A stretch of 61,058 nucleotides of DNA, filler included, from Hausera hauseri (lineage: Eukaryota), in assembly GCA_046269625.1 (NCBI GenBank). It is 9 parts of 9 records of this genome, joined end to end, with 100 filler letters (N's around TTAATTAATTAA, not from the genome) between each part and the next. Parts side by side here need not be neighbours in the genome. Positions count along the whole stretch, not along the records: positions 30,922 to 37,973 come from JBJURY010041222.1; 8 more parts are not named here. One strand, 5' to 3'. A program made the translations under genes and the position numbers. Within the stretch, counting starts at the first letter, position 1; the number at the start of each line of letters is the position of its first letter. The notes under the pieces were generated by a model. It saw only the letters and a program-made list of their open reading frames with translations, was not told the origin of the DNA and made no database searches. This document shows, piece after piece, positions 6,508 to 59,869 of the stretch.

Positions 6508-6511
6508 CTAG

Positions 6512-12058: not shown

Positions 12059-12176
12059 TTTTACACATCAGAATAAACCACACGTAAAATAAAAATACTT
12101 GCAATTTCTGTACAATATACTGCTGCATTATATTTAATTACAATAAGTATGATAAGTGCAAATTCGTATAATTAAT

Positions 12177-15311: not shown

Positions 15312-16319
15312 ATTTCCACAACCAGTTCATAATGCCTAGCATGAAATGAGACAAACATTGAGACAATAATTTACAATAACATATATAAATATATTATTAA
15401 AGACAGCACACAAGGTGCAAGTTTTAATGGCCTTGGTGGAATACTTAACAGTTTTTAGATATTTAATAGTTTAATTCTTTGACCTCATTTTCATAAACGG
15501 AGGAGAGCATATGTCAACATTTCTGACAGCCCTCTGGTGGTGGGAAAAAGTACTAAAAAACACCGATTTCAAAAAGACGTCTTTACTTGCTTAATTCAAA
15601 GGGATACTATAATTTTATTTGGTGTATTGAACTTTAAAGACACGAAAAGGATTAATGAGAATTGTACAGAATGAAAAACTGACAGTGAGTGTACATGAAA
15701 TGGGCCAAAGTGGGGAAACAAATATTTTCGTTTTAATCTGTGATGAATCTGTGATGAATTAGTGTGGTCTGTAATTGTACTTCTGCTATTGGGTGACTGC
15801 AGTTTAAACTGAGTGGATAAGAAAGTGTTGGGAGGGAACTTGCAAAATTCAATAAAACTCCGTCTTTTACGGCGTAAATTTCGGCGAAATTACGGCGTTT
15901 TATAACGCCGTCACGCGTAAAAAAGCGGCGTTCAATGTCCAAAATAAACGGCGGAAATTACGGCGTTTACAAAACAGGCGTAAAAAAAACGGCGTTTTGG
16001 GTTGTTTTATCATTTTACGAGACTATTTTTGGGTTCCCTGGCTCATCACCCCCAACGTAAAAGATGAGGAAGACTGGGCGGTGTGAGGCAGCACTGACGT
16101 CACTCTCCTGCGCCACTTGGAATTGCCAATTCAGATTGATTTTTGGAACACTTTTTGCAGGGGTGGGGCGTGAAAACGAAAAAGCAGTTTGTTCTTGTTT
16201 CCTCTGTAGTTGAGTTACACAATGAGCAGTCTTGAAGAAGAAAATGAAAATGATTTATTTTTAATTTTATTTATGAGTCAAAAAATGCAGCTTGACTTTG
16301 AGATGAAAAAGCATTTCTG

Positions 16320-16982
16320 CTAATTCATTTTTGTTTTCAAATTGCCTAACTTTCTGATGATCATTGTTGTGGACACCAAAATGAGGACGAATGGTATCAC
16401 GAAACCCAATGCAATCTCGAATTTGCCTAACAAATTTTCGTCCAATTTTGGCAACATAAAGGAGCAATTTTTTATCGTACTCAATACAAGAATGATGGAA
16501 CATATAATCATTGCCTCCTTGTACGAGAGTTGTCTTATAAATAAGTTTGTTGGTAAAAAAACAAGAGTCAGTCGTTCCAAGGATAGAGTACAGAGTTGCC
16601 AAATAGCACAGTTGTTGAACTCATAAGAAAGGAATAAATGGATACGGTGAAACCAGTAGCTAATTGATCTCACGTCATAATTGTCATGGACCAGAATTAC
16701 GTAACGTGTACCCAAGACAATCAACACCAATGTATCATAAATATTTTCAACCAGCATGAGTATCTTTGTACATTTCCTCAATCCGTTGTCATAATGCAAC
16801 ATAACCATTATGAGGATATTTCCGATATACCCCAGTATGAGAATAATTATTAATATAACTTCGATAATTCTATTGTTGATGATTACGTAATCCGGTGGCT
16901 AAATAGACAGGATAAATCTCGTAGAACAGACATAAATACAACTCACATTTTTAGTCGTCATTACACTGTACGTTGTATTCAT
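16320..16982 (-). pseudogene. Rhodopsin-class peptide-receptor-like GPCR, TM1-TM5 only; exons 16982-16947 and 16898-16320
   Basis: Exon 1 MNTTYSVMTTKN, 48-nt GTGAGT..TAG phase-0 intron, TM1 GYIGNIL, TM2 Asp, SLERL (DRY-like), TM5 FVIPF; TM6-7 absent. Confidence 0.8.
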
Positions 16983-17838
16983 ATTTTTTTAAAATTAATT
17001 CTCTTCAATTTGGCGTCTATTTATGTGATTTGTCTACTTCTTCAGGCAGCCAATCAGCTAGAAATATTTCTAAAATTTATAGATAATTTTCATGTTACGT
17101 CTTTTTGCACTTCTTCAATTTTCCCTCTAATATACAGAAGAATTTTGAAATTTCATAAAATTTTCGCTTCTTTTTTAAACAAACATTCTACTAAAGTCGA
17201 ATTTCCAGCTTGTCATTCATGTTATGTCAAAGTACAATGTATTCGTCTAATAATCAGTTACATCACTAATATTTCTTTCTTCTATATAAATATTAACTCT
17301 GCACATGAACGATAGCATATTATGAGTCAAATATTAGACGGATATTTATTAATTATACAAAACTTTAAGAAAACACAATTAGTCAAATATTAATGGTTGA
17401 AAAAATGGCAAAAATTTTGTTAATCCACAATATTCTTCTGCGTGTTAAGAAGAAATTGAAGAAATGCGAAATTCCGTAACATTTGGAAGCCCGTATTGCA
17501 TAATCTTAGCCTTGTCTGCAATTTTTTCATATTTTTAATCATCATCTTTTAGATCTGATTTCCATAAAAAGCCCTGATAATCAGGAATGCGTTATACCTT
17601 GTTAGATCGCATGTCGGTGCTAGAATCACCATCTACTGTTGACTGATGATTTTTATTGAAACTTTCAGTTGCCAACGCAACTTTTTTCTTTCAACTTGCA
17701 TTGACTGACTGTTTCCATAGATCTTTGTGAGACCCTGTAAAAAGAACTAGGCAAAGTTCTTAAATCGCATGCTTCCAATGTTTGAAGAATTTAACGGGCT
17801 AGATTTTCTTTCTTTCATAAAATTTTCATGACTTTCAA

Positions 17839-22936: not shown

Positions 22937-22937
22937 T

Positions 22938-23105
22938 AACAGAGTAGCAGTGTATGTGGACTGTCCTGCTGGCATTCTGTCCTTCTACAGAGTCTCCTCT
23001 GACTCACTGATCCACCTCCACACCTTCAACACCACATTCACTGAACCTCTGATTCCTGGATTTGGGTTCTGGTTCAATTCTGGTTCCTCAGTGTTTCTGT
23101 GCTGA
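22938..23105 (+). CDS. C-terminal end of a B30.2/PRY-SPRY domain (fish NLR-B30.2/finTRIM-like)
   Basis: Manual translation NRVAVYVDCPAGILSFYRVSSDSLIHLHTFNTTFTEPLIPGFGFWFNSGSSVFLC*. Confidence 0.93.
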   Translation, partial: NRVAVYVDCPAGILSFYRVSSDSLIHLHTFNTTFTEPLIPGFGFWFNSGSSVFLC

Positions 23106-26100
23106 GTTGAATCTAAAGAGTCTAAAGATTTTCCTCCTGTCAGAGAAACTCTCTCACTGTTGAACAGATAGTTCAGTCTCTACAATCTATTTCTTGGTGA
23201 AACTTTTCTGATTGAGTCCTTGGAAACTTTTTCTTCTTCCAGTCCTTTAAAGATGGAAGCTGGGATTATTCCAGGACTATTCCAGGATTATTCCAGGATG
23301 ATTCCAGGATCCTCATGTTTTCCTGTTTGTTTCCAGTCAAAGCTTCACACTGAATATCAAGATGTTGTTTCTCTTATTTTTCCTCTCATTCATCAGATTT
23401 CATTGAATGTTGATCAGTTTTTCTCAATCACTGAACATTTTCTGTTTCTGTGGCTCCTATTTTTCTAAACTCGTCAGATTTGAATATTAAATCTTCCTTT
23501 TGTTTATTTGCTGCAGTTTTTCTTCATGTGTTTTAGAGAAATAAAAACATTTTTCTTCTTCTGCATTTGGTTCATTTGCTGCTCATTCTGTTCTTTTCCT
23601 GTTCAAATTTAAATATTGTATTAAAAAGATTTTTTCATCAACTCTGCCTTTCAGAAAGTCCTATTTAAAGTAAAACATTCCCATCCCATGAAGGTCAGAG
23701 GTCAATGCTTTGAAGCATAAAGTGGTAAAATCTTAATATTTTCTGTTTCATTCAGAACTTCTACCTGAAACTCAGAACCTGCAGAACATTTTTCTCTTTG
23801 GAGAAAAAATCCAGGAAGTGGAAGATCAGAGCAGAATGAAAACTGGAGATCAGTGTTGGACAGAAAAGCTCTGATCGCTGCATCTCTGCAATATTTTACA
23901 TTTGATAACAAAAGTAAAGCTATTTTTAGCTGAGAATAAACCAACATGGATATGACCCGCCACAGCCCAACGTGGGCCACACCTGATTCAACCCAAAGCG
24001 GAAAATAAAGGATTTCATTGGAAATCCCAAAACTCAGTAAAATCAGCAGCTAGTTGTGATTAAAATGCAGTTTGTTGCAGAGGTTCAAACTTCCTGATGG
24101 TGACCTCTCCTCCGTCCCTCACCTTGTCTGGCCGCTTTTAATCCTCACTGCAGTGTTAGACTGGAGCTCATCTCTCAGATTAACCAGATTAACACTGAGC
24201 TGCAACAGGAACCAAACGTCTCTCCTCCAACTTATTTCACTGATTAATAACAAGGTTGGATAAAAACATTGAGCTGAGCTTCTCATTCCTTAAAGAGTCA
24301 TGAAGAAAGACTCACCCTGTAACTGCAGAAAACAAGTTAGAAAGTTTAAAAATAGATACATTTTGCATTTAAGATGGAACAAATATATAATCTACAACAT
24401 TGGGTCATTTAAATACAGGTTTGTCTCACCAAATTAGTTTCCAGCAGTTAATTGGGGTTTACTCATTATTCTGCCAGCTTGAATGTTTCTCTGCAGTTTG
24501 TTTTGTTCCTGTTGCCTCCAAGCTGAACGTTGATCCCCATGAATGTTTCCCCTCATGCAGAACCTGAGCAGAGACATTTATGACCTTTATACCGAGTACG
24601 AGAGCCAAGAGGTGGAGGACCGGCTGCTGGTGTCGCCGTCTCACCTTCTGATGTCTCCGACCAAACACTCCACCCTCAACATCAACATTTAAAAATGATA
24701 CAGGAATGCAGTTTTCCTACTTTCCCACTGGAAACAATCTAGTGTAAATATTAAATACAGGGAAGCATCGATATGAACATTTGGGCCAAAATATTAATTT
24801 ATTGACTGATTACGGATATTTACACTTTCAAATTTGGTCTAAAATCATCAGGAATTTGGTCCATTAAACAGTTTCAAAAGTTAATATACATGTAGGCAAC
24901 CAGCTTCTCCATATGGAATGCCTGAAATGTCGAAAATAGGACATGTGGACCAAGAATTAAACAGTTATTTGAATGCAAAGTCCATTAAATCCACTCCACA
25001 CTTAATACATTGCAGTCTTTATTTGTGAACGTGTTGCTGTTCGGTTTGAAAGCTTAAACAATCAGAAAACACAAAATGCAGTGAAGAAAGTATTAATGAT
25101 GTCAATGTTTTTTCCAGCACCTCATAGAAAAGGAAAAGTTAATCTGCTAAGAACTGATTGTGTATTAAGTGTATTAACTTCACTAAATGGTAACAATAAC
25201 CTTAATAGCAGCAACAGCAGAAATTATTTTTCATATTGTTATGCAGTGATGACCATCTTCTTGAATCACGTTTCAAACTGTTTGATGTTTGGACTTTCCT
25301 TGATTTCCATGCTTAACTCATCCCACAGCTTCACCCACATTCTGATATACAAAAGCTTTTTCTTGTGGTTCTTGATTTATTTTTTTAATATTCACATTTT
25401 CTCTTTTTAATGTTTCCTGCTAATTATTTATTTGTGGCTTTAAACAAGATACTAATGGTTTATAATGACACTATGTCAGCAAATTTTAACAATGTAGATT
25501 TTATGAATAGTGTGTTTGTATGATTTAAATAACCAGCCTTATTGATTAGACAAAACCAGCAAATAAAACATTTTATACATGAACAATAAAAGCAAAGTTT
25601 TAACAGTAAGAGAATCCCAACTATTATTAAGTTGTAGTGCTCAACTAGACCTTTGTCTACTTGTTTTGTTGATTCTTTTGTGTGATTGAGAATCATATTT
25701 AGTGCTTCACAGGCAAGAGATTCAATGAATTGACCATGTTTAGAAAGCTGCATGTTAACAGTAGTTTTCAGTGTGTTATGTGTGAGGTGCTCCCCACATC
25801 TCCCTTCTTCTGGATTCCTATGGAGGAGATGATAACCCACTCCCCCTCTGGAGTATTCAACCTACCCAAACTTACTTCTCTATAAGAGTATGATTACCTA
25901 ACCAGCAAGTTCTTTAGTACTAGATTTATAAATGTGCAGAATGTAACCCAACTCAGAAATCATATAAAATCTATTTTCCTGATCTATTGGAGAAGACTCA
26001 ATTGGATTCTTACAGCTACACCTGAATGTCCCATTCCACTTCCTTCCATGGATTAACCAGCTGGTACTGGGTCAGCTGGTTTCCAGTAACATATGAACTG

Positions 26101-29100
26101 GCTGCTCTTCTCATCTCTCAACTGCCTCAAGAAACGGATCCAGGTTTGGATTAGTGATTCCTTTAAGTCCCCAGGATTCTGTTTTAATAACTTATGGTAG
26201 ACTTATGCTAAGAAAACCTGGAAATACTTCCCATCATTTTTGCATACCATGGAATAAGATGATTTTAATGTTGTTGAATGACCTTTGAACTACAGAGACA
26301 CACTGTAAAGGTGCTTAGAGTTGTCTTGTTCAGGGAATGATTTGAACCAGTCAGTCATTAAACCATCAGGGAGAAAAATAACCTGGGATCTTTCTGAGTA
26401 TCTAGTAAACATAAGAAAACTTACAATGATAATAACATACAGTAAACTATTTCATTTCATAAAAGTCTTTCACTGATATATTGTTTCATTGTTAACTAAT
26501 AGATTAACTAATAGAGAACTAATAGATAAAGCATTTGTGTTTATATAGAAATATAGTCCTAAACTAGATGCAAAATGAGAAATGTCCTGGTAAATGAATC
26601 TGCTGAAAGCCTCTTAAACTGTGGAAAACTTTTCTGCTGAGATCCACAATATTTTATGTCCATAAAATAGAATTACATTTGTGCGTAATCACTCTGTCTG
26701 CTAAGGCTCCAGTGAACCCTAACCAGAAATTTAAAGGATTTCATGTTTGTAACTCGTGAAAAATGTACATCACATAAACTGATGTGATTGATGTAAGTCA
26801 ACACCTAATATTCCCAGCAGAACTTTAACTCTCAGAGTTTCTTTTAGGATCACATTTATTTTCAGAAGACCAGTTTTTTCTTCTAATTGTGTGAAAAAAC
26901 AGGAGCAGATTTTAATGTTCAGTCAGAAGCATTTTCAATTGTTTGGATCAGTCAGTTTTTGATGTGTGTAATCTTAACATTTGCACATTATTGTAGAAGA
27001 GAGCTGAGCTTCTCTTTCTACCTGTTTTTTTGTTTTTGTTTTTTGCTGGGAGGACATGGCGCAGAGTTTAACAGTATGAATTCATAACAAAGATGAAATT
27101 GAAAGTTCATACATTTTAGTAGAGACAGAAAAAACTTTGTTAGCATAATGCATGTTTTTCTGACTTTACTGCAATCACATATTAACAACAACAAAAGAGA
27201 CTGTCAGCTATTTTTTAAAATAACTTGTTACTTGCAAAGGAGAAAAGGTAACAGAGATGAAAGCTTGTGTCCTGTATGGCTGTAAGTAAATCCTTGACTG
27301 TAAACTAAACATGTTCTTATTTCACCGATGCAACAACTTATGTTAGATGAAGCAGAAGGAAGTTTGCTGTGTGGTCATTAACAGGTTGGACTCAGCAAAG
27401 TCCTGCCTCTGAGGTAATAAAACAAAAATCTACTGGATTAACATTTCAGCTAAACTTCCCAATCACCTTTTCATCCTAATGCAGGAAACAACTGACAGAC
27501 GTAAACTGTTGGTGATGCCATATTCACTAAAGGATTTATTTTAAAGAATGGATCACTTGTTAGTTTACAAGAAAACAATATGAAAATGATAAATGTTCCT
27601 TTTTTATTCTTGTGAATCTTTGTACTGATTTCAGTAACAAGAGAATTCAAAGTGGTAAAACATTCAGACACAACTTGAGGAAAAAAAAGTGCAGCAGCAA
27701 AATAAATGTAAGAAAGTAAATAGCCACACGTTTGAATATTTTCCATTTTTCCAATAGATTGACAATTACATGGGGTTCATGGTTTATAAAGTTATGGAGC
27801 AGAAGGAAAACAGTAAAAAACATCTGAAAAGTGTGGTGGGCTTGTGGATCTACTGATGCAGTTTTGCTTCAGAATGATTTGGAGACCAGGTCTGAGTGGA
27901 TTTGCTTCTGTGGTGATGTTTTCCTGTTGTCTTTTGGTTTTTTCAACTTTACTCCTTTCAGGGAGGTTTATTTCCTACAACACTTGATGCTAATACATAA
28001 CTGCTGCATGTTCTTGTGTTTTGAAGATGCAACCAGTAATTGAACCATAGATTGTGCTAAATGGATTTTAGGAAAGGTATTGAGAAAAATAAGGTGGAAC
28101 GAATGAATAGAATCACTTACAGCATGGGCAATGCATTTTTTATTTCATTTTATGGTTTTGCTGTGTCTGCCTCTCGGTACATAATCAGACAGGATGATAA
28201 AAATGTTCCTCATAAGTCTTGTGCAGGTGTTGGTAGTTGTAGCATAAATGTAGAGGTCAGGCATACAGCTTGTTTCAGTCAAAACATTTCAATAGTTTTC
28301 CATAAAACTAACATTAAATAACAGACTCTTATCTGCTGTTTAAGCCTGACACACATGAACAAGAAGATTTTTAAAGCTGCTTCATTTTGGCTTACAATGA
28401 AATACACAAAGCTATTCTTTAATGATGCATTTATTTTTATATGGGGTCATGTTTAACTAGAGGCCAAGCTATCAATCCTGTCACTCTTGTGCTCTTTCCT
28501 CAATTATGTGAAAAAGTTTGTTCTTTAATCGTTTGCTAGTGCTGTGGTGTTTTTCTCTTTCCTTTTTCTTGTTTCTCTAGATAGGAGAGGAGTTTGAAAT
28601 GAGAAAGAGAAAATTAAGAAAACCTTAAAAAATATAGACATGGTAAGCAATTCTAACTTAATTTAAAATGATTAACATTTACTAATATTAATAATGTTGT
28701 ACATGTTTGATGGCTTAGTAAATACTTGTTGAGTTAGGGAACAGTAGAACCAGATTTCCTTGACTTTTATTGTTTAATAAGCAACGGCTGTTGGAGACAA
28801 GCTGCTGAGTTACTGATACAAGCTGAGCGCAGCACAGAGAAACAAACAGCAAACATTTGTTCATAAGATTAAACTATTGTAATAATTATAATAGTATGCT
28901 CCTTTTATTATTATTCTAACATGTATTGATGGTTGACAGTTTACTGGTTCCACATATCCTTGACTTTTATTATTTGCAATCTCTAGCTGGGTTAAAGTGG
29001 CCGTTGCAGAGGGGCTGTTGGTTTATCTGATACAGGCTGAGCACAGCAGCTGCTGCAGCACAGAGAAACAAAAGCTCTCAAAGTTAAAAAATATACATCA

Positions 29101-29424
29101 ATTGTCTACAAAATTAAACCGTTCTCTTTTTATTTAAATTGTAACTTTTTAAAATTTACTATAAAACAAAATATTAGTTAATAAATACTGGACGATTTAG
29201 TAGATAAGGCTGCTAAATCTAAAGTTAGATTATAAATAGATCATTAAGACTAGCATTTCTTTAAATATATTACTTTAAAGTTACATCTAAAATTACTATT
29301 AAAAAAATCCTCAGATAAGATTAAAATAACTGCAGATAAAACCACTCTATTTCAATTGGCTAATTCATGAACACCTATTCTATTCATATTCATGAACCCC
29401 CTCTCCCCACCCCCTCCTCCCCCA

Positions 29425-29505
29425 ACTCACCCCTCCCCCACACCGGAAGTATGCCCCTCCCCCACACCGGATGTCACCCCTCCCCCAAACCGGAAGTCCC
29501 GCCCA
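29425..29505. repeat. Three ~23-24-bp C-rich tandem units containing CCGGAWGT
   Basis: CCCCTCCCCCA(C/A)ACCGGA(A/T)GT repeated three times. Confidence 0.7.
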
Positions 29506-29747
29506 CCTGTCAAGTTTGACGAGAAGTATGACCTATTGTTTTTTTCACAGACACTGTTTTCATTCCAGGGCCACCAGGCACAATACTAAACATTTAGTCC
29601 TTCATTTCAGTGTGCTGCTGTTTGTGGTGATAAATCATGTCTCTATCTTCTCATAGAAGCCCTGGACACTTTAATCATCCCATACTCTTGTGTGTTTAGC
29701 CATAATAATTTGGCTCTATCATGCACGTACAGCAGTGTATGTGATTT

Positions 29748-29966
29748 ATGTGTGAATGTGAGGGAACGCAGAGGAAGCTGAGGCAGAGCGCAGCCACGCT
29801 GCTGCTGCTGTTTGGCTTCCAGCTGCTTTCTGAAACTTCCGCTCAGGCAACCCAATCACCTGACAAGCAGGACGACAACGCGGCACCAGAAGAGGAGAAG
29901 GGGGGCGCTCAAGAAGACACTGCACAGAGTATACTCACCATGCTTTCAGAGTTCCTGGACAGCGAG
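29748..29966 (+). CDS. Probable first coding exon of a secreted fish protein, unidentified
   Basis: GC-rich island, signal-peptide-like AATLLLLFGFQLLSETSA, acidic segment, GAG|GTGAGG donor. Confidence 0.45.
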
Positions 29967-30416
29967 GTGAGGCTGATCACAAACCACACCTTGCCTCTTG
30001 ATGTTTAAAGACATTCAGCTTTAAATTATCTTTGTGTCAAACATCATCAGCGTTACCCCCTATATGTCACAGAGTGAGGTTTATGCAAATCTCAGCCTAA
30101 AAAATAGAAATATGTATGAACCAATTATTTGAAGAGTTCCTATGGAGTAAAGAAAGTGTCTGCTAGCAGAAGCTAAAAGAACACAGGTTTGGTCATGGGG
30201 CAATAACTGGTTTTAAACATATACCACAGTGTCAAATTTTTCTATTATTCCACCAAACAATATTACTCTTATGATTTAAATGACTAAAGAGATAACAAAG
30301 ATAGCTAAAACTTTAATGATTATTAGGAAAATGAAGAGAAAAAAAAAGTTTAATAACCTTGATGTTTTTTTCTGTTTAATAAGTGTGTATTTGAATATTC
30401 TTATTATCTTTATTAG

Positions 30417-30706
30417 GTGAGCCACTTTGCCACCTGTGCCTGCTTGTCAGATAAGCAGCAGTACCCAACTTTTTTCAGAACAATTCCCAGTGATCAGTTC
30501 CAAGCTGATGCTCTGGTCAAGTTGGTGAAACACTTTGGCTGGACTTGGATTGGTGCTGTCCACTCAGACTCAGAATATGGAAATTATGGGATGGGATCTT
30601 TTCTTGACGCAGCACAGAGAGAGGGGATTTGTGTGGAGTACTTTGAATCTTTCCTGTGGAGCGACCCACACAGTAAGATCCAGAAGTTAGCTGATGTTAT
30701 ATGCAG
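30417..30706 (+). CDS. Internal exon of an OlfC/V2R (CaSR-like class C GPCR) receptor
   Basis: VSHFATCACLSDKQQYPTFFRTIPSDQFQADALVKLVKHFGWTWIG; flanked by TAG acceptor and GT donor. Confidence 0.95.
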
Positions 30707-30821
30707 GTTTGCAGTTCACTGATTTAACCATTTCTTTGTAATAATGTGGAACCACTTGACAAAAACAAAAAGGGCTAGTTTTAACAAAAATTAATAAAAT
30801 ATATTGTATTGTGCTGAAAAA

Positions 30822-30921
30822 NNNNNNNNNNNNNNNNNNNNNNNNNNNNNNNNNNNNNNNNNNNNTTAATTAATTAANNNNNNNNNNNNNNNNNNNNNNN
30901 NNNNNNNNNNNNNNNNNNNNN
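30822..30921. other. Artificial contig linker
   Basis: Same cassette. Confidence 0.99.
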
Positions 30922-30984
30922 TTAGCGTTTCTTTCGACTCGAAATATACTGGTTAGTCGTCGCCTTGACAGATTTATGCAAATA

Positions 30985-31665
30985 TTAACATTTCCGCTCT
31001 ACGTGGAATATTTTCATCAACTGGGATCTTTCATTATTAAGTTTTGTTCCTTTTATCGGTCCAAGTTCAATTAGCTTCGAAGTGTTAAAGTCGACCGCTA
31101 TATTTGGTAGACGTCTTAATACATTGCATCCTAATACTATATTATCCGTCAAGTGTTCCATTGTAGAAAATTCATGTTGGAATGTCTGTCCCATTATCTC
31201 GATACTAACATTCCATTTGAATTTCCGTCTCGTTTCTTGTCCGAAAGCACCTATGCTTCGGGAATCGGTTGCTAGAGGTGGTCTCAACTGAGTTCGTAAA
31301 GCTTTTGGTATTGATCCGTCTTTTATAAATGATTTTTCCGATCCGGTGTCTACTAACGCATATACTTCCCAATCGTCAGTACTAATTTTGGCGAAGGGCC
31401 TTCCTTCTTTTATTGTGGGGTGTTTAACGGCGGATATCTTGTGCGCATTAATACTCATTTGTGATATACTGCTGAAGTCTTCGGCTACTTGTCTCAATTC
31501 AGTTGTGGGGTATAGTCCATTATTTATGCAGTTTTCGTCATCCTTTTCCTGTGTACTAATTAATGGTTTTCGGTTATTTGGATTACGGAAAGATTGCATT
31601 TGTGGCTTATCCCAAATTGCGGATTTAGTTTCTATACCTCGTGGGATCCTTGGGGAGTATATCAC
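30985..31665 (-). pseudogene. Retropepsin (gypsy-type aspartic protease) region
   Basis: YALVDTGSEKSFI (DTG at 31350-31342), IVLGCNVL; followed after a frameshift by IPRRAEMLI..PVYFES, resembling the gypsy PR-RT spacer. Confidence 0.88.
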
Positions 31666-32049
31666 CCTGTGGTCATCAATTGATCAATGACATAACTCCG
31701 ACCTTTCTCTAATTCCATAAATTTTCCGTAACGCACCGTATTGCTTAGTCCCTTCATAAGGGTCTTCATAACTGAAAGGTTTCCAGTAGATTTACCTACT
31801 TTAAGTATTACCTGATCTTTTATCGCAGTCCTCATATAATGGTTCCGAAGGGGGCAGCATAGGAAAAGGCGGTTTTATGGCCGAGTGCGCCTTATGTTTA
31901 CCGATTTTGGAGACCATGTCTCCTCCTTTAGGCTCGTCGGCATCCAATTTGTTTTTCCGTTATTTTGCATCCCTTTGTCCTATGAAGAATATGGGTTTTC
32001 TCTTTCTTTTTCGATTATAATAGCCGACATGTCTTTTGACATCGCTTTT

Positions 32050-33842
32050 TCATTTGCTTTCTTCATAAGCCTTCAAGAATTTTTCGAAATGCCTTATGAA
32101 TGCTGTCAAACTTTTACACAAAAATCCAGTTAAGGTAAATATTTCATAGCCGTTAATAACGGATTGAATTACTGCTTTGATTAGTTGTACCAAGAAATAG
32201 ATGGCTAGGAATCCAGATTTTGCTTGTACGAAAATTAAAAATCTTCCAATATTTTTAAAAATATTTCTTTGGTAACTCTTTGATAATGATTGTAACCAAA
32301 TTATGATTCCCATTTCACCTGATGGCGAGTATCATCTATTACTGTCGACATAGCCCTATTCAATTCATGCGTATGCTGACGAGGAAAAGCTATAAATTGT
32401 CTAAAGCCTTGATTTCCTTTGGTCTGTAAATTCCCTAACTCGCGGTATCCTCGAATTTATCATCCGTTATACCTTTTAGCAAGTTTGTTCCTGTTAATTT
32501 ACTTGGCGTGGCTGTTATTCCTCCGTTTGGCAAATTTACCCAATCTGTCTCACTTCTCCTAAACATATTCACATTCCTTCAAAACCGTCGGTTATGTTGA
32601 ATTTTCCAGTAAGACTCTTGTAAGCGGCATCACTGATCGAGGTATGTTCTTGTATAGAACTGGCGATTTTTGTATGCAGCGTTTTTCTTCTACGTTTATT
32701 GATACATCCCGTTTTTTACATTTGTATATTAACAGAACTTCTCCGGTGACCCGCCCGAAAACACGTTCTTTCATAGGAATTATGTGTGAAACTACTTCTG
32801 GGTTGGCATATATTAAAGCCAGTTTGGTCCTCGTAACTTTTGTGTTCAACTTGCAATTATTTGTGATCATTTTGTGGTATAGTTCCGCTATTCGGTTTGT
32901 CCCTTATAATAGAAGTAGTCATCTCTATTTTTCAAGTAGTCATGTATCCTCACATATTGCATTTCCAACATAAAGGTAGTTATTGCAGCTTCTGCTACAA
33001 AGAATGCTCCGTAATATGTGGCATACATAACTAACGTTACATCGAGAGAGCATTTGCTTATTGATAAACTTTAATCCATGGTCATATGAAATTAATATTG
33101 TCGGTGTGGAATGTTCCGCCACGTCATTTCTTGGCCTGATATTTGTATCTAATGTACCTACATATCTTTTTCCCCTGGTTTCATTAAAGTTTCTCTTTTA
33201 TTTTAATACAATTGCAATCGTTCGCAGGAGGCGCAGTCCAAACAATTATCGAGTTGCGGAAAGTTCAAGCACCATCTTGAATGTGACACTTCTGATTTTC
33301 AGTATACGCTTTCACAACGCTGTGAAACATTACTTTTTGATTCCTCATTTCTGTCTCATAAAAATCTACTACTATCACACCTCCTTCTTTTCCCTTTCCA
33401 ATATCGTATTCTGCTCCGTTACAGTATTCTGTGTGCACATCTAGCTTCCCAGCTGCGACCTTGCATGCATGAATTATTTTCTCTTGCTGCGCTTCTAACT
33501 CCATACCGTCCCATTTCAATCTTCTACTTTTTTTGTCTTGTTTATATTGTTGTCGGTCTAAATCCATGGGAATTAGTGGAGTCATTGGTTTTATTATATA
33601 TGAGTGTCCATGCATATTCCCACAATGAAAAATGCTTCAAGATCGGCGTAACATGCATTCTGTTCCATCCAACGCAATTAACTCACGTTGCTGATATAAA
33701 AAATATTTCATCTCGATTGTTACTAATTTGTGGAGTCTGGCATCCTCGCACATTTCTAAGTCCATTAGGGAGTATCGCAATCATATACGGTGATTGCTGT
33801 CAATTGCCTTATTAACATCATGAGCGTTAATAATTTGATCAT
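32050..33842 (-). pseudogene. Chuvirus-like (herpes gB-related, class III) fusion glycoprotein
   Basis: Signal MIKLLTLMMLIRQLTA then ITVYDC, HCGNMHGHS, YCNG, LALIYANP..GRVTGEVLLIYKC..CIQKSPVLYKN..VMPLTRVL, GIY, IAFPRQ, TM segment GFLAIYFLVQLIKAVIQSVINGY. Confidence 0.85.
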
Positions 33843-34544
33843 CCAATTCGATTCGTTATCTCGTACTGAGCTGGGCGGCATTAAATTTCTTACAACATTT
33901 TCAATTTTAGTAGACGGCCTGCTTTCACCTTTGTCGTCAAATAGTTTGGACCAATTTATTTCACTAGGAATTTTCCTGCCATCCTTCCTCGCTAAGCCAC
34001 TGGTCTTATTAAATTCATTTTTTCGCAATAGATTCGTTCTTATTGCCAAATACAATACTCCTTTCATAAGTTCTTTCTTAGTGTTCTCCGTCATAATTTT
34101 GTTGACTACAGCCTCCTCAGGTAATGTACTCTTAGTCATTTTGAATCGAGGTGTTCTCATTAGTCTCGCAGCATCATATATAGCTCTTTCCTTGTCATCT
34201 TATATGTCGCTTCTTGGTCCTATATGATTCACTATTCTTAAAAGATTCTTCACTAGCTCGATTAATTCTTCATTGTCTGAACTGATCGCTGGCATTGACA
34301 ATTGTCTCAGTTCTCGGATTATATCTGTACTTGATCAGCTTTGTCTCTTACTTTCCTTGACCTTCCAACTGGCGGCGTTGCTTCACTAAGCGGCACTAAA
34401 TTCTTATCATACTGCTCCTTATCTTTCTCATTTTGGAGGAATTCAAAGTACATGGTAGAATCTTGAATTCCCATGATGCGTCTTGCACAATGTTCATCTC
34501 TTGCTTTTCTTATAGCTTTATATTTTGTCTGTTCATTGGTAGTT

Positions 34545-34765
34545 ATTGACACTACTATGTTAGTTTATTCTGGAATAATTGCCACGTCTATTGGTAGTTC
34601 GGTTTCATCTAATATCCTACCTCGGAAATATAATCGACTATTTCCTTCATCTTTACCGCCGTTTTGTATCATCCATTGTTTTACTTCTCTTAGCGATATT
34701 GCCGTTGTACACTCAATTTCTCTCTCGTCCATCCATTTGGTTGATCCTTTTACTTTAATTATCGT
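34545..34765 (-). pseudogene. Ubiquitin-like domain within the polyprotein
   Basis: IIKVK...SLREVKQWM..GGKDEGNSRLYFRGRILDETELPIDVAIIPE*TNIVVSI follows the ubiquitin pattern VK..TIENVK..RLIFAGKQL..DYNI..TLHLV. Confidence 0.7.
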
Positions 34766-34959
34766 TACAGGTTTAACCCAGAAGATTTTAGTATACTTTC
34801 TTATTAAAAGTTTTGGCGCATCAGCATAAACAGTGTTTTCACTCGATAGTTTAGTTAATGTAGGTATTAGTCGTCTTAGCTTACTTTCAGTTACATTTAC
34901 ATTAATTTGTTCAATTAAGTCTCTTTTAGCCAGCGCAGGGTCTAGGAGCATCTCCACAC

Positions 34960-37900
34960 GAAATCACCGATTCGCCGGAAGCGTATCCGTCTCTTAAAGT
35001 TGAATAAGAGTTTTAGGGTTTTGGTTGTATATAACCTGCAAATAAGCGTCTTATCCTGGATCATCTGTAAAGTCTGGAAGTCCATAGTCTAATAATGTCG
35101 GGCTCGCGTTTCTTGCCTTTTCATGATTCTCGCTTAATCTTGGTTGGAGTTCTTTCATTAGGGTGGTTTGGAACTTTTCTCCATTTACACACGCAACTTG
35201 TATCATTTTTAATGTCGGCCCTAATTCGTCTGCGTGTAGGAGTCCTTTTCTTTCATAATCCGTTAATTTGGTAGCTATGTTTCTTAACCATCTTTGTGCA
35301 AATTCATTTTTGTTCATTATTTCCGATCGAGTAAACTTATTTATTTAGATATATTTCTAATTCTCTATCTAACTCATCTAGCTTTGTTGCTCTTTGCTTC
35401 GTGCGGATTCGCAGTTCTTCTACGTGTTTAGTTTGAGTTGTCAATTGTCGTACCTTGTCGTCATTAATTTCTGCCATTGCCGTTAGAAGCGACATTAGTT
35501 CGTACATTTCGTTTAGGGCCTTGAATCTGGATATGTTTCGTCTATCAGTTTCTTTACGAATTTAGCTTTCTCCGGTGTGAGATGACAGTCATTTTTTATT
35601 TCCAACAATTCAGCATGGCAATTTTGGTCTGTGTCTAATGACCATTCATGTAGACGGTGTAAAAATTTTAATACTACTTCTAACGCGATCCGATGTTTTG
35701 GACAAATATCTAACGTTGTTAAATGGTCAAGCGATATTTTGTTTGTAGGCTTTGTTGTCAAATGTCCAATTCCTGCTAAGCGATTGTGTTTTAGTGCTGT
35801 ACAGATATGGGAGATCATCTCTTGTTCCGTTGGCAATTCCATTTCTTCGATAATTTTGTGTATTTCTCCCATGAATTTTACCTCCTGATTGTTGCTCATA
35901 AAATTTAGCCTCATCAATGAGTTGAATTCAACCCGAAGGTCTGCATCTGTCTTCATAACATCTATGTTGCGGAGTATTACTTTTAACTGTTGTTCGGATA
36001 TCGGGTCTTGTGTCGAAAATTACCTTAAGCGATACTTTGTTTGGTCCGCTAATCGGCTTAACAATTCTATCCACTCTTTGAGTTGGTTGTCTATCATTGG
36101 TTTTGCATATATTACATTTTTCTAACCTTTCATAAGCATCGTTTAGTTTGTTGTCTGGACCTTTGATTTAGTCCATTATCTGTTTGGCGTAATAAACTTC
36201 CTCCTTATATTCATCCTGTTCCAAAAGACACGTTTTATTATGTTTTGCCTTTCCTGATTGTCTATTTTCTTTATTTTAGCCTTGCATCAATAGATTTTAG
36301 AGCGCCTTTTACCTTGTGAATCGATGCGAATTCCTATACCCGTATATTCCTTATGTACACTAAACGCGATTTTACACATTTCTATTAAAAGAGCAATGTC
36401 TACTGGATCTATTCCCAGTATTTGGAATTCTTTTTCATCCAGTTCATTCACTGGATTATTTTTAAGATGATATATCATCGCGCTCTCGATCTCTTCCATT
36501 AATTTTTCTAAGTTGCACTTTGTTCGCTTCTGGTTCGGTTCCGCTTCTAGTGTCTTTAGTAGTTCCTGAGCAGTTGCCACTTTACTTTCGATTTTTTTCT
36601 CTTGATTTTCCCATATTTCGGTGAAGTCTGTTCCACTTTTTATCCATGAGTTCAGTTTTGATCTCCATCCTTTAATCGATTCGTCGATGACTTCCTCTGA
36701 TTCTTTTAGTTCCTTTTCTCTTCTAACTCCTTCCTGAAGGTATTTCTTTAATTCTTTATACATTTTCACAGCAAACTGTTGCTCTTTTACGGAGACATCT
36801 ATTTGGGTTTTTATACGTTTTAGTTCCTCTAAGTTATAACGTAGTGTCTCAGGGTAGGTTGATGCTGTCCTAATCTATTTTAATTTATCTGCATTTTTCC
36901 ATGATTTCCTGATCTTACAAAATTTTCCATTGAATCTCTCGATACGATCGCTGTCGTCTTCACATACAGTTAGCGGGCATATCTCGTTTATTCCATTTTA
37001 CGGATCCTCTGCGTCCGTGGTTGTGCCTGGAATATCCAATACTTCCTTAAGCTCCACATCTGGAGTGTTCAAACTTGAATCACTTTCCATGCCAATGTTC
37101 TATGGATTCGTCTTTTTCGGATTTTCTCTTTTTATAGGAGATCTTGATCGACCATTTTGTTTTCTTTTAATTGATGGGCTTCGACCTCTATTCTTTGTTA
37201 TTTTAAGCACTAACGGAGCTATATATTCACTCTCAATTTTTTCGGTAACGTCGGTTTCTTTTTCAATTAGATTTTCAGGCTCGGCGTCCAGATCTACATC
37301 GGGAGATATTGTTGGTACTTATACACCACTTACTTCTTTTGTCCCTTTAGGGTTAACCGGCACCTTATTCTCGCGAACCATGTTACTACAGTCTAGTGTT
37401 ATTGAATATTTGTATTCCGTACGAGGTTGCGCCCATCCGTGGTATACCTATAATATTCGTATGTTACTCTCATATTCCTTTCCAGCCTTTAATATTTGTG
37501 GGTTGTTAGTTTCATTTTGGCTTTTCAAATATCTTCATGAATCTTGTATGTCCAAAATCGCGTCTATGTCGCCTCGTGGACCATATTTTGCCTCTAAATC
37601 TTCTTGCGTTTTAATCATGGTCGCTTTGGTAGGTTCGGTAAATGAGATGCTTCTTGGATTCTGGCATGATCTTGCTATGACCTTCCATTCCTACCAACCC
37701 TTTATCGAAATCCTCATTTACAGGCGACTTTGATCGACTACTGTTTCTAGTAAAATTTTCATTCGGCGACTCTGGCTGATTGCTCCAATTACATTTATTT
37801 TCATTTCTTCTAGGATCATTGTGACGATTTCCATCCTTGTATCTGATCCCGTTATTACTGTTTCTATAACCATTTTGATTGTAATTCAAATTATTATTTG

Positions 37901-37973
37901 GCTTCATGTTCGCATTATTTGAGTTCCGATTATTGCTAAAACTTTTGCCCTCGTAGCGCGGGTTCTTATTATT
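34960..37973 (-). pseudogene. Unknown N-terminal part of the polyprotein (Asn/Arg-rich, then charged helical/coiled-coil)
   Basis: ORF fragments 37611-37973, 36287-36769, 35513-35956 and 35051-35317, bridged by frames containing isolated stops. Confidence 0.6.
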
Positions 37974-38073
37974 NNNNNNNNNNNNNNNNNNNNNNNNNNN
38001 NNNNNNNNNNNNNNNNNTTAATTAATTAANNNNNNNNNNNNNNNNNNNNNNNNNNNNNNNNNNNNNNNNNNNN
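37974..38073. other. Artificial contig linker
   Basis: Same cassette. Confidence 0.99.
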
Positions 38074-42260: not shown

Positions 42261-45200
42261 GTGAATGAAGGCCTCATTGCGAGCATTATTAAACTTACTT
42301 GGTGTTGGTCTATGGCTGAATCCTCAAGTCCGCAGTTCTACGATTATGAAGATGCTCGTGATTTGCACAGTCCGCTGGGCTGTGCGGTTTGTCATGCTTT
42401 TTCTTATCTGTGTTATTGTTTTTTAGGTCTCTCTCAAGGATACTCCGGACATGAGCAGTGTGTTGAATTTCTTGCTGGGCTAGCCGACGATGATGTCGAG
42501 TACAACTTTGGATTGATGAATGATGCTGCGTGCTTGACCAGTGTCAGCCTGAGATGCCTTGAAACTTCGGTTTCACATGTTCCTGCTATCCAGTCCGGAG
42601 TGTCCCTGAATCGAGACCTAACCACTGTAAACTACGATTCCTCCGTTCAGAATGGCCGCGACACTGGTGCTGCGCCTGTTCCAGATCATGGTGCGGCCGG
42701 TCATGAGGAATCAGAGAAGGTGGAAATCCTGTCACATGACCTGCTTGATGACAACTGTCTCGGACGTCGAAAAGTTCAGGTGGAGTGCCGGTGGTCTGCA
42801 AAAATGCTGCGGATAGACGGCAACGCTCCGAAGAAGGAGGCTGTAAATGATGATGACAAGGAAGTTATGCACTGTGAGGCTAGATTAAATTCGCCCACAA
42901 TGCCTGGTAAATTTTATTATTATACAAATAATTTTTCGTTTCCTGGCGAATTCGATGAATTCGAGCTGGTTTGTAATTTTCCTGGCGAGTCTCGGCCCAC
43001 AGTAGTTGTCTCCTGTGATCCCGGTAAACGGCTCGAGCTGGACCAACTTTTATATTTATGTTTTCCTGGCGGTCTTGAGACCGAGCTGGATTTTATTAAA
43101 CCTGTAGGTAGAAATGTAAGCATAGGAAATGCTAATAAAAAAGTAGAGAATAGGCCACTCTATGGCGGAGGATATCTCCCAGTACCCCCTAATCCCGGCT
43201 ACACCCTGTATGATGCGCGTCTACTTCCTCCTCCTTATCTCTGGCCACTCCTTCCACAATGTCAAACTTTTACTCCTCCTTCCCTGCTCCCTCCACATCC
43301 CCACAACAATAGACTTCAGACTTTGCCACAACCGCCTCCTATTCCACCAAAGGAAAGTTTCCGAAAGCCATATAAACCGACCCCTTCATCCACTTCCTCC
43401 CAAAAAAGACACCAACAAACTCAAACACCCCGAATTAAACTCTTGCACACGGCAGCTCAGACTGACCTTGCAACGTCTACCGTGGCTCACAGTAGGTCGG
43501 ACACAGCTGCGAACATCCAGACAAATATGGTGCCTCCTGCCTCTGCTCATAAAATAAATTTTATAAAATTCACCCCTGCCTCGAACATTTCTAGTCCAGA
43601 CAAAAATAGCGACCTACATAAAAGCAACACCTCTGCCTCTCCGATGTCTGTAAACCCCAAAAAATACCTCGCTATTCTTATAAGCATGGCAACAGACCTT
43701 CTTCTCTTCCTTAAAAATAACTCTTGCAACTGGATACTTTTTCCTTTAGATAGCCTTACCAAGGACGAAAGGACAACACTCTCACTCTATGCCAACCAAA
43801 TTCTTAACCATCTACGATCCCTCACCACTCACTCAACAGCCAAACCTGCACCAATTGGAAACATCCTTATCCTAAAAACCTTTTTTATTCTCGCGTGCGA
43901 CTCCCTACCAATTACTCCAACACATGATGTCGCACGATTTGTATCCACTTTCTGCCAAAATCCAACTATACAAACTCTTAGTGAATTCTACAACCAAACA
44001 TTTCTGCCTTCTAAAATCCTAAACAGTCTCACCTCTATCCAATCATACCATAAACACACAAACTGCGACTCTCAGATCTCTGCACAACAATTGCAACTCC
44101 CAAAAGCATGCGCCCCTTTCCAAGAGTCGAACCCTCCGGTGGAGGAACAACCAACAAATTATATAGTGGATGAAGATATTGACGAATACTCCTACGACTT
44201 AAAACACCAATTACCTCATTATGCTTCCATCCTGCTTGCCGACCTCCAACGACTGCTATTCAAAAAACCTACCCACTATATTGCATTTGCCACCAGTGAA
44301 CTTCCACAAACCTTCTGGAAAAAGCTTACATCCCGTATCTTCACAATTCAAACGAAACTTCCTTCCTTTAGTAATGATACACCCAACCTAAACTTCCGCT
44401 TTGACTCTCAACACACCATTTTTAATTTCCTTAAAGCCACTCAAGAATACATTGTTCAACGGAACCCTACCAACTTCACCCACTTATGGAATCGGATGAA
44501 TGTCTCTGAGATTTTATCTGAGAACCCTCCAATCCAAAATATCACCGACACCACAACAAAACGTAACACCTCTAAACCAAACAACAATGCAAAGGAACTC
44601 AACATTGAGAAATCTCAGCCTGTATTCTTTACTTGGCCTCTGCCAAATGCTCTTACTACCCACGACACAATCCTTGAACAGTTCATCCCTACTGTAAGAT
44701 CTCTTAAGCTCTTTTTCGCCAAAAATCGGAACCCCAATGTCAGTCCCTCAGTAACCTTTAAAGATAACAGGCTCAAAACCCAGGCTACTTCCTTCCTCAA
44801 CGATTTCCTACGAAGATACAACTCAACTCCACCTTATGCACCGATTTACTTCACTTCTAGGGCCAAAATATTACTATTCCTAGAAAAACTGTCTCGTGCT
44901 TCCCTCCCCTCCCCCACTCCAGATATGGATTTTCTACTACATAACTACAAGCCTAAACCCACAAAAATTCCCACTAAAAAGATACCAACATACCCCATAC
45001 CTGAAGAATCTAACCAACCAACCCCACATAACATCATTACAACCACGATCCCCACACTAGACCAGAACCAAATAAAACCTGTGAATAGTCTTCTTTTCAC
45101 CTGGCCCCTCAAAAATGCCCTCTCAACTCGCGATACACGACTCGAACAATATGGCCCCACCGCCCGAGCCTTAAGACACTTCTTCTACAAGGGCCATAGC

Positions 45201-46433
45201 GCACGAGTCAATTCTAATGTCAACTTCGATAACACCAAACTTAAAAACCGTGCTTTAGGTTTTCTACGCAAATTTCTACAGACTTACAGCTCTCCTCCTT
45301 CAATGTTCTCAACTCTTAGATTCTCCTCTAGACATGAAATGTTAATATTCTTAACTAACCTCTCAAGAGCAACCTTGCCCTCAGCAGAACAAGAAATTAT
45401 AAACCTGATGAATAATTATAAAATCATTGCCTATGGGAACTCGGCGATTCCTCCCGAACTACCAATACAAAATATAAACACACCTAGTACTCTAGCCTGT
45501 GACCACCCGTTGATCGTGCCTTCAACTCCTGCTATAACTCAGCAGTCCATGTCTGCTCAACCCGCATCAGCACAGTCTATTTCAGACGTGCTTGGCACAT
45601 GTGCTGGGGAATTGGCCGATAGTGCTGCCCAGACGTCCATAGAATGCTTCCTGCAATCCCCACCTAATACAAAATTTGATGCACCACTAATAGAAACTGA
45701 AAACTCTGAAATCACAAGCAAACAAGCAGACTTTTCCTTGACTGAGACCGTCTTTACAAGTCAAATTCACACTTCACCCAATACTAATTCTCCTTCTCAT
45801 GCAGACCAACTCAGTTTAGCTACAGAACTTGTTTCCCTTATCTCTTCCTCTTCTACTTCTTCCTCCAACAAATCTTACTCTGACATCCTTAAAACTCCTA
45901 CACCTACAAAAACAACAGCTACTTGCAACCATCCGGACACTCCTCTTAACAATATGGGTAAAAATTTTAACAACTCAATAAAACGCAAACTCAGGAAATG
46001 CAAACCTGAGACATGGTTCTCGACCGATGAAATTGATTACTGGGGCTACCAAACCTTCCTCAGACATAAAGCCTTATATATCTCATGGGATCTATTCCAA
46101 ATTGCTTTCCCAAATACAACTGATGTCTCCGCACACCTTCACCTATCACCAGAAGACGCTAAACTAATACACTCCGCTACTCACACATTCATCTCACTCT
46201 GGCACAACCACCACTGGTTACTGGCTTATATAAACAGAAATACCAGCTCTTTATATCTAATTGATCCCTTCAAATCCTCCGAATATACCAAAATCCCCAG
46301 CCAACTATTATATTCACGTCTTGATGTCTTCAAAGCTGTATTCAACATCCCCGAGCTAACCTTCAGAGGTCAATATGAACATAAAGACCACCAACCTCTT
46401 TCAAACTCTAATGACTGTGGTCCCTATGTCTGT
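42261..46433 (+). CDS. Large ORF, open at the contig end, with a C-terminal Ulp1/C48 cysteine protease; probably the N-terminal part of a NeSL-like non-LTR retrotransposon ORF
   Basis: WFSTDEID, HHWLLAYI, YLIDPF, QPLSNSNDCGPYVC give His-Asp-Cys plus oxyanion Gln; C/A-rich coding strand; true start uncertain. Confidence 0.8.
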
Positions 46434-46533: not shown

Positions 46534-47988
46534 GATCTCCACACAGAATTAATGTGATGTTCTCACCGATTTGTGCAAGAATCTGAAGACTGGCCCGCGA
46601 TGCTATTGTGACAAACAGCAGAGCTAAGAGCCCAGCGATTTCTTCAATGCCCTAAGTTAGGTGGGCTGTACAGGACAGTGAGCTGAGATCCACCATGATG
46701 TAGCTGCACTGAACTTTTATGGGTATATATCAGCGTGCAAAGATGCTGACCCTTCGACTAAACTAAACTCTGTAACTCTGTAGGTGTGTGCGCGCGTGTG
46801 TGTGTATGTGTTTGCTTGGTAACCATCTGTCTTTCTCTTCATTGTAGCGTTTTCCTACTTTCTTGTTTATATTCGCACACAAATAAATGACAGTAACCTG
46901 AGAAAAATGTTAAAAAACGAAAGAAACAAAGACCCGTGAGACTGAACGAAGTTAGTAAGAAAAAAAAAAAAAAAAACACACATTGGATAAAAGACAAATA
47001 ATTATCGACGATGGACAGGCGCCATTGCCTGGGCACTGTAACGAACCAAGCAGTCTAGCAACTACACCAACGATGCACAAAGTATGCATCGAAATAATCA
47101 TCCGTATACCATTTTCTGCAAGTACACGACAGTAATATAATCAGTTGTTAGCGCTAATCTTATTAGTGTTGAGCCGCGACATGTTTTTTTAACGCTATGT
47201 TTAGTATGCCGCGTTAAGAACGCTCGCCTCGAAAACGACTGTAGTGGGTTCAAAAACACGTAGGATCCCACCGTATAGTCGTTGAATTGAACATGTTTAT
47301 GACAGAACAGGCAAATGCGAGAGTATCAGACAGCAACTATTACTCCTCAACCCAGTCAGTCCCTCACATGCGCCCTCATTTTACTGTACTAACGCTCACT
47401 TTTGTATTTATTCTTTTTTTTTCACAAGTCGTTGAATTGAACATGTTAATCGCTAACCACGGATATATCAGTCGTTTTGTGACAAAAGTGTTATATATGA
47501 AATGATTGTATTGGGTCTATATATAACTTAGCAGGGGCACAGTGTCAGGGCTGACCAATCATAGTCAGTCACGATCGTCTGCCCACGTCGTCGTCCCAGG
47601 TAACGCTAGGGAAACCTAACGTATAATGGTTGGAGGATCGAGATTTTCCCCAGTTTGGGTACAGGGTTACTTATAGGAAGCCAAGCAGTGCACTCAAGCC
47701 TGGAGGATATTGTCCACCTCCTAAACACAACCGGGACGGCAGGAAAGCTCAGGCACACTCCTCCAACAGCCCTTATCAACAGTCTTTCAGGACCCCAACA
47801 GCCCTTCTCAGGAGTAGTATAGGATGCTAAAAAACGATAACCATTTCAGACGCTAATAGGTAGGTGATAAGTAAATATTCAGGTGCTAATATAGAGGCGA
47901 TAAGAAATGTTTAGGTGCAAGATTGTACATGATGGGCAGACAACTCTTGCATATTTTTTATTTATTTTATTGTAAGGAAGAGACAATG

Positions 47989-48457
47989 CAAAAGTAAGCA
48001 CAACTGGTCCTCCAGGTTGGGGGTTGGTGCACAGGGCCGACGACCCGGTCACTGTAAAAGATTAACTCCTACGGAAACAGCAACAGATGATCAAAATACA
48101 AAACTGCAGGATGGACCTCCGGAGTGTGACACTCGCATGACTGCCAGTGGTGAAAGCCCTAAGGAAGCCACTGACACGAAAATGGAAGCCCTGATAGCAA
48201 AACCAGAAATGAGAATAGGCTTCTGGAACATTCGGACAATGAACGAAGCCGGAAAACTAAAACAAATAACCAAGGAAATGAATAATTATAAACTACACAT
48301 TTTGGGAATAGGCGAAAGCAGGTGGATAGGAACTGGGAGGATAAGAACAGCTACAGGAGGAACTGTGTTCTACTCAGGAAGAGAGGACCAGCAACACAGC
48401 GAAGGCGTAGCCATTATTCTAAAAAAAGGATTAGAAAGATTACACGTGGAATACTAA
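47989..48457 (+). mobile_element. RTE-clade LINE 5' fragment (part of the 5'UTR plus APE N-terminus)
   Basis: MRIGFWNIRTM..LHILGIGESRWIG..FYSG..HSEGVAIIL. Confidence 0.9.
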
Positions 48458-48632
48458 ACAGAATCAAAACTTAACCTTATGTTAGTCGGTTATTGCAGAC
48501 TAATAGGAATAACATACCTCCTAGTGGAAGTCTTTTGGTTGAGAACTAGAGAGCTGAGCAGAAGTCGTTGTTGAGCACATCAACTGGTAGAGTCATGTGC
48601 ACAATGCAACATTTATATACCAGGTACCATGG

Positions 48633-48895
48633 CAAGATAAGATAAGGTAAGATCTTTATTTAACCAGGGTTGAAAAATAGGCAGTATTGCCTGATTACAC
48701 TTCTGCCCTGGGGGTAGATTTTTCCTAGAATTTTGCCCGGACAGTGGCCATTAGGCCTACTCTTTTTTGATTTTCAACTGCCAAGGGATTTTTAAAGTGC
48801 ACGATAATGTACACGGACGTCCAATCTCACTACCCAGAGATCAGGGGAATTTTTAACTAGGAGATCCAGGAGAAAAAATCAGAGTTGCTAGAAAC
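48633..48895 (-). mobile_element. SINE family A copy (head truncated); duplicated at 56598-56860
   Basis: (ATAAG)n tail on the plus strand, shared core CTGCCCTGGGGGTAGATTTTTCCTAGAA..CAACTGCCAAGGGATTTTTAA. Confidence 0.8.
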
Positions 48896-49227
48896 ATCCA
48901 TGAGCAATTAGTAATAGATTGTCTCGCAGCACACCGTTTACTAGAAAATTCTGAGAAATTTCATTAGATAGCATACTGAAACAAGCCTTCGTGCTGTGAT
49001 ACTGATGATTCAGCTACCATTAAAATTCAATCAGTCACGCTCTTTTTAATGAACCCTTCTTTTAGACGTCAATAAAACAAATTTTTCAGTTTTGAGTTAT
49101 ACGTCTTATTCTTCCTATTTTTTTTTTTTTTTTTTTAAGGATTCGAATTTCAGAAAAAGCGAAGGTTCAAAACTTACTACTGTCGAATCTTTATCAACAT
49201 TCGAATGTCCTATCTCAATTTTTTATT

Positions 49228-59852: not shown

Positions 59853-59869
59853 TCCGCCAATGGAGAGTA

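Follow-up and report, generated by a model that had tools for sequence, protein, structure and literature searches.

The question raised by this locus is whether a viral-type fusion glycoprotein (Env) that stands directly ahead of a retroviral protease is in its native place, and whether the two were once made as a single chain. The window is the whole 61,058-nt stretch of DNA analysed here, taken from the Hausera hauseri assembly GCA_046269625.1. It chains nine contigs by N linkers, and the locus is the 7,052-nt contig at 30922-37973. In our very probable reading, this contig is a piece of a decayed retroelement that holds a ubiquitin-like (Ubl) domain, a gB-type fusogen and a retroviral protease in that order. 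The element is likely a Burro-like member of Ty3/gypsy, with an intact form that would be one Gag-Ubl-Env-Pol polyprotein. The features, in coding order, are as follows.

30922..37973, minus strand: whole contig, an internal piece of one decayed retroelement with both ends cut (N linkers at 30822-30921 and 37974-38073)
37614..37973, minus strand: Asn/Arg-rich open stretch of 120 open codons, which likely corresponds to the low-complexity segment that follows the zinc knuckles of Gag
35516..37611, minus strand: coding-like region 'X', partly charged and helical-looking, mostly in a single frame with few stops
34541..34918, minus strand: small helical domain plus ubiquitin/SUMO-like domain, common to intact relatives (profile, model and Foldseek)
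34035..34313, minus strand: perhaps what is left of a Bcl-2-like domain (a weak match, located where one is expected)
33795..33845, minus strand: signal-peptide-like hydrophobic stretch at the end of a 144-codon upstream open frame, aligning with the pre-Env stretch of relatives
32050..33794, minus strand: broken gB/Monjiviricetes-type fusion glycoprotein gene (PF24664 in three pieces)
32155..32211, minus strand: predicted Env transmembrane (TM) anchor, the best 19-mer of the piece 32331-32053, aligning with the TM region of relatives
31495..31515, minus strand: LYPTTEL motif, 52 residues ahead of the protease motif, with YP at the family spacing
31069..31407, minus strand: retropepsin (LVDTG) of the RT-proximal type (PF00077 and profile)
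30929..31048, minus strand: stretch in another frame where the spacer between protease and RT likely begins (spacer profile, weak)

The contig has a GC content of 0.37 and a CpG observed/expected ratio of 1.07. Its coding strand is rich in A (A 0.40, T 0.23), and the DNA of one relative, L002, is alike. Stops and frame changes are scattered across the entire contig, Env interior included, and this copy is itself dead. When the three whole minus frames were searched against protein families, no match was obtained to RT, RNase H, integrase or capsid families, nor to nucleoprotein or L-protein families. No direct repeat family of at least 30 nt occurs inside the contig. An earlier note on this DNA had seen no RT, RNase H or integrase motif in the 4 kb upstream and neither an LTR nor a capsid between the glycoprotein and the protease, and the family and repeat searches bear this out.

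The stretch was found in a single sequencing run, perhaps the source sample, with a share of 0.73 (contigs only), and no RNA dataset is listed as carrying it. The family is multi-copy. As many as 1702 contigs of that run align with a likeness of at least 85%, and all 30 bins have depth; 957 of the 1702 are less than 90% alike, and most are less than 95% alike. Such high copy number and divergence invite mosaic assembly. Among the run contigs listed, none spans the whole stretch, and of the 8 pieces shown, out of 1742 from that run, not one bridges the interval 31686-32050.

The glycoprotein was identified by family profile. PF24664 (Monjiviricetes_fusion) matches in three pieces above the cut-off and in profile order (profile positions 38-226, E 3e-8; 325-423, E 3.8e-12; 528-601, E 8.9e-9), and these pieces sit in different minus-strand frames. 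The earlier note had described a glycoprotein of about 600 codons on the minus strand at 33842-32050. Its landmarks are all in place, namely the hydrophobic stretch from M33842, VYDC, CGNMHGH, GEV..KC..C..PV..P.TR, GIY, FP, the TM and INGY, but they do not lie in an ORF. With tblastn, the fusogen could be followed as a coding sequence, but only across about seven frame changes plus stops, spread over three frames. In tblastn against relatives, the match is collinear along the full Env ectodomain, with 19-47% identity per piece, and nine of the ten conserved Cys columns covered hold Cys in the window Env. Domains I-II share 19-28% identity with 19 intact relatives. In a tree of these 19 relatives and the window, built without an outgroup, the window Env sits on a long branch with 48% support. 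Searched as a profile against solved structures, Env had no relative by sequence (best E 0.65), and a metagenome contig scan with a window Env piece gave 42 pattern matches and zero confirmed relatives.

Downstream of Env, the last ORF matches PF00077 (RVP) with E 1.1e-6, and the LVDTG that the earlier note had placed after the glycoprotein is there, with L at 31356 and D at 31350. The RT-proximal proteases found in 12 relatives, combined in a profile, match the window protease with iE 2.6e-14; from a word-indexed set of proteins 407-2000 residues long, the protease ORF retrieved nothing. The note's further statement that the glycoprotein tail runs straight into LVDTG fails, since five stops, located between 32052 and 31684, interrupt the frame that the TM and the protease share. 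The distance from TM to protease is about 266 codons in the window, and relatives span 118-361. Beyond the protease, 30929..31048 is the best of 54 frames for the spacer profile and lies at the expected place, as a weak match (iE 0.35, next 19). In relatives, the YxDD of RT stands 403-412 residues past the protease motif (12 of 12). From this spacing of about 405 residues, RT is expected beyond the contig end, about 0.8 kb past 30922.

Upstream of Env, a profile of the pre-Env domain from five relatives picks out 34918-34541 with iE 6.4e-7, with the runner-up at 1.2 among 54 frames. The same profile matches 11 of 27 relatives, five of which are its own members. An eight-row alignment profile of the Ubl region retrieved ubiquitin, ISG15 and ubiquilin from the PDB. 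The window Ubl piece was modelled by AlphaFold with a pLDDT of 67, and Foldseek placed SUMO and ubiquitin-like folds on top (E 4.8e-5; 155 matches at E <=0.001). With the window Ubl alone, phmmer found no PDB chain, and Pfam gave ubiquitin at E 0.14 only, so that an alignment was required for recognition. The alignment profiles and the predicted fold show the Ubl domain upstream of Env to be real. Between it and Env, the Bcl-2-like profile scores a weak 3.8 bits, which is equalled by 11 of 600 random windows. The peptide QWLSEEGW near 34000 resembles BH2; it is one residue short and too near the preceding helix, and it stays outside the profile match even when a frame break is permitted. A Bcl-2-like domain stands directly before Env in 5 of 27 relatives, by Pfam match in four of the five and by PDB profile matches, and it is therefore not universal in the group. 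For the model of one of them (P0003), all top Foldseek rows are of the Bcl-2 family (best E 5.5e-3).

Further upstream, region X (35516-37611) has no Pfam match above the cut-off and no match to a profile of the mid regions of relatives, and its part at 35516-36019 gave no usable match in an Atlas search. The Asn/Arg-rich stretch that follows toward the contig end resembles, by eye, the composition found after the CCHC knuckle in P0011, P0026 and P0027.

Intact relatives show how these parts are arranged in a complete element. An unrestricted HMMER search with 33771-30988 against 1.84 billion representatives gave 15 matches. PF24664 is present in 14 of them, a protease lies behind it in six, and three carry a full Env-PR-RT-RH-IN chain. 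Cluster look-up added two more relatives, one of 4844 residues. A search with the Env of P0005, limited to proteins of 1262-4018 residues, gave 15 matches, ten of them new; such a length limit biases the set towards polyproteins. Of the 27 relatives in total, the 18 with an Env TM and a later protease motif were analysed and nine fragments were left out. At least four near-duplicate pairs occur among the 18, so the counts overstate independence. Env, protease and RT are on one chain in 12 of the 27 (all 12 among the 18 analysed), and Env comes first in every one.

The layout on one chain is Gag, a variable region, Ubl, in some a Bcl-2-like domain, signal, Env, one TM, protease, RT, RNase H and integrase. 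Uninterrupted ORFs from Gag to integrase are seen in L001/P0022, P0012, P0019 and P0026. The DNA of L001 is open in one frame over 3703 codons, which take in two zinc knuckles, Env, proteases and RT; in L002 the open frame runs for 3426 codons. Both are single collapsed or cut contigs in which no self repeat was found. Gag capsid families match in P0021 and P0026. Ubl and a Bcl-2-like domain both precede Env in P0003, P0021 and P0022, as in Burro. The Pol of relatives has the order PR-RT-RH-IN and is of gypsy type by Pfam (RVP, RT_RNaseH, Integrase_H2C2), and Peptidase_A17 has no match either there or in the window protease. Extra copies of the aspartic-protease motif, giving three to seven along the chain, occur before and after RT (P0002, P0004, P0005, P0016, P0018-P0020, P0023, P0025), and 7 of 12 relatives have additional copies between Env and the RT-proximal protease. 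When viral contigs were scanned with P0006 as query, no relative was found.

Several relatives carry more beyond Pol. In P0006, P0022, P0023, P0025, P0026 and P0027, integrase is followed by one more hydrophobic stretch, then by an unknown domain and by a TM at the C terminus. This segment may be a further membrane protein made as part of the polyprotein, and a candidate partner of the fusogen; the example at L001:9901-11205 has no Pfam match. Accessory ORFs downstream of the polyprotein match the RNase_T exonuclease family (L001:12085-13470, E 1e-3; L002:10617-12104, E 1.4e-5). NCBI assigns P0006, although it is the polyprotein of a eukaryotic retroelement, to a genome bin of Flavobacteriaceae, likely through bin contamination.

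The order of Env before protease is taken as native because 12 intact relatives share it, and because the window has the Ubl domain upstream of Env and the YP motif downstream. This also answers the concern in the earlier note that the order might come from a nested insertion. It is highly improbable that the junction arose by accident, whether because a chuvirus-like glycoprotein was inserted into a standard gypsy element, because sequence was deleted, or because repeats were misassembled. The divergent high-copy family, with more than half of its aligned contigs below 90% likeness, and the lack of a bridging piece among the few shown would allow such an accident. However, both flanks of Env match one polyprotein family (Ubl upstream; YP and an RT-proximal protease downstream), the A-rich strand bias is uniform, and no nucleoprotein or L-protein family matches. 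A mosaic of copies from one family would also leave the order unchanged. A plain endogenous chuvirus was ruled out on similar grounds, with no viral N or L match and with flanks that belong to a retroelement polyprotein.

The polyprotein itself is a separate matter. Since the window copy lacks a continuous frame, we infer the single ORF from the relatives. The same gene order could have been expressed with Env as its own ORF, or with Pol reached by frameshift or read-through. The stops in the shared frame between the TM region and the protease fit this, as does the ATG at 33842, which begins the signal-like stretch. The description 'ORFs arranged as GAG-ENV-POL' in the available text of PMC13524379 allows it too. 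However, stops and frame changes run through the whole contig and through Env itself, the nearest intact relatives are fused, and the TM-protease distance falls within the range of these relatives. We therefore regard a separate ORF as improbable, and the (gag)-X-Ubl-Env-Pol polyprotein proposed in the earlier note as likely right, since relatives are single chains in that order and the window Ubl matches theirs.

A single polyprotein of this kind would have to be threaded through a membrane. The topology proposed in the earlier note, with Pol returned to the cytosol while tethered to the fusogen, agrees with the hydropathy of the relatives. On a simple hydrophobicity scale, all 18 relatives have a hydrophobic stretch directly before the Env start, and all 18 have one hydrophobic 19-mer between the Env start and the first protease motif. 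The chain would be synthesized on ER-bound ribosomes, and the internal signal would, by standard ER targeting, send the Env ectodomain into the lumen. Signal peptidase would then separate Env from the cytosolic Gag-Ubl-(Bcl-2) part. Once cut, the signal could remain on this upstream part as a tail anchor, an arrangement in keeping with a Bcl-2-like domain. The one TM would stop transfer, so that protease, RT, RNase H and integrase would be back in the cytosol, tethered to the Env tail. Tethering would deliver Env and Pol together to one membrane, at a constant ratio. Pol would finally be released by the protease, with the conserved YP motif or its vicinity as the likely place of the cut.

In 17 of 18 relatives, this motif precedes the first protease motif by 27-61 residues, and shuffled sequences give a mean of 2.3 and a maximum of 8. 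Y-P is a classic retropepsin type 1 site, and from the sequence we see about an even chance that the conserved YP is an aromatic-proline site cut by the element's own protease. Less probably, and again judged by motif pattern, it may be a late domain of the ALIX-binding type (YPxnL) that recruits ESCRT for budding. The window LYPTTEL fits what we take to be the LYPx3L consensus. YPx(1-3)L/I is present in 11 of 18 relatives, where shuffled sequences give 1.1, and four of the 18 have PSAP or PPxY in this linker. The spacing of 27-61 residues is also loose for a protease N terminus. However, the strict LYPx(1-3)L is present in 6 of 18 relatives only, the invariant part is Y-P itself, and the near-duplicate pairs inflate these counts. 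The probability that is left falls to a motif that is neither cut site nor late domain. A limited search of the literature on late domains, ESCRT and ALIX in LTR retrotransposons found no paper on Burro-like elements. As a rather unlikely extension, the element may represent a deep-branching Burro-like lineage outside free-living planarians, in a fish-associated invertebrate such as a parasite. In such a lineage, the YP of the Env tail would be a group-wide late domain, and Env rather than Gag would drive budding and hold Pol at the membrane.

The earlier note knew of no described element with this order. The order is in fact already in print. According to the available text of PMC6431247, Burro/GYPSM1 are giant gypsy-like LTR retrotransposons of dugesiid planarians, known from earlier work by Grohme 2018 and Jurka 2007 that is cited there. 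Their single ORF encodes Gag, a SUMO/Ubi2-like domain, a BCL-2-like domain, an Env related to mononegavirus fusion proteins, protease and RT, and decaying Burro fragments are reported for Dugesia japonica. Burro and the window share Env before protease and Ubl before Env. They differ in that the 7-kb contig has no MATH, BIR or ankyrin match, its Bcl-2-like domain is uncertain, and its Env is distant from every intact relative that the searches retrieved; Burro was compared by description.

GAG-ENV-POL Ty3/gypsy errantiviruses with an HSV/gB-type ENV are described from Nematoda, Bryozoa and Platyhelminthes in the available parts of PMC13524379, which cites Sacco 2022 for the nematode elements and gives Macrostomum, Prostheceraeus and Schmidtea as flatworm hosts. 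They have the same order and the same Env class as the window. The Schmidtea rows seen in its supplementary file 2 show, by eye, the domain I-II pattern of relatives and window (YQE..., EC...K, CG..S, G.C.G). Ubl, Bcl-2 and polyprotein fusion are features of our relatives and are not mentioned for these elements in the parts available. Anakin elements of BEL/Pao carry a chuvirus glycoprotein (Dezordi 2020, in its available text) of the same family, PF24664, likewise captured by an LTR element. In contrast to Anakin, the window protease matches RVP and the gypsy-type profile, and Env is ahead of it, which speaks against membership in Anakin/BEL-Pao. Troyka (PMC12440569), also considered for comparison, has no bearing on env order in the portion available. 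Judged by its sequence, the window element would work like Burro, and it fits the wider GAG-ENV-POL group on two features, Env before protease and Ubl before Env. Since gene order and single polyprotein are already published, it is not a new class.

The host of the element can be approached through the other contigs of the window. The CpG observed/expected ratio is 0.21 and 0.45 on two fish-like contigs (1-7474 and 22937-30821), and CpG is undepleted (1.0-1.07) on contigs 7575-12176 and 30922-37973. What we take to be a fish-type pheromone-receptor-like exon lies at 30417-30722, on a CpG-depleted contig. A heavily decayed copy that keeps its CpG suggests a host that likely does not methylate its repeats, and thus, likely, an invertebrate in a mixed assembly. 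The assembly would then likely mix fish with an invertebrate, and the latter would be the host of the retroelement.

Other observations concern these contigs in their own right. In the N-free contig 12277-17838, a GC-rich LINE RT piece at 13554-14096 (RVT_1, ALKBH8_N) is joined to an AT-rich stretch, which holds a divergent GPCR exon at 16323-16898 with a 7tm_1 match only and an empty search for relatives. Either this contig is chimeric or the LINE is shared between host and associate. On the minus strand, 117-6507 holds a retrovirus-like element whose long open frames encode a protease, a Pol of 1048 codons and, further downstream, an Env-like product of 758 codons, all labelled by eye. The stretch 46534-61058 contains a near-identical duplication at 7965-nt spacing, possibly an assembly duplicate. 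A 1391-codon open frame fills 42261-46433, with a weak Ulp1 protease match at its cut end (E 0.04).

What is new here is a distant member of a known layout, together with the conserved YP motif. The layout is common in metagenome assemblies, as the full Env-protease-RT chains make up 12 of the 27 proteins retrieved. The conserved YP motif offers a concrete handle on how such a polyprotein would be threaded through the ER, cut and packaged.
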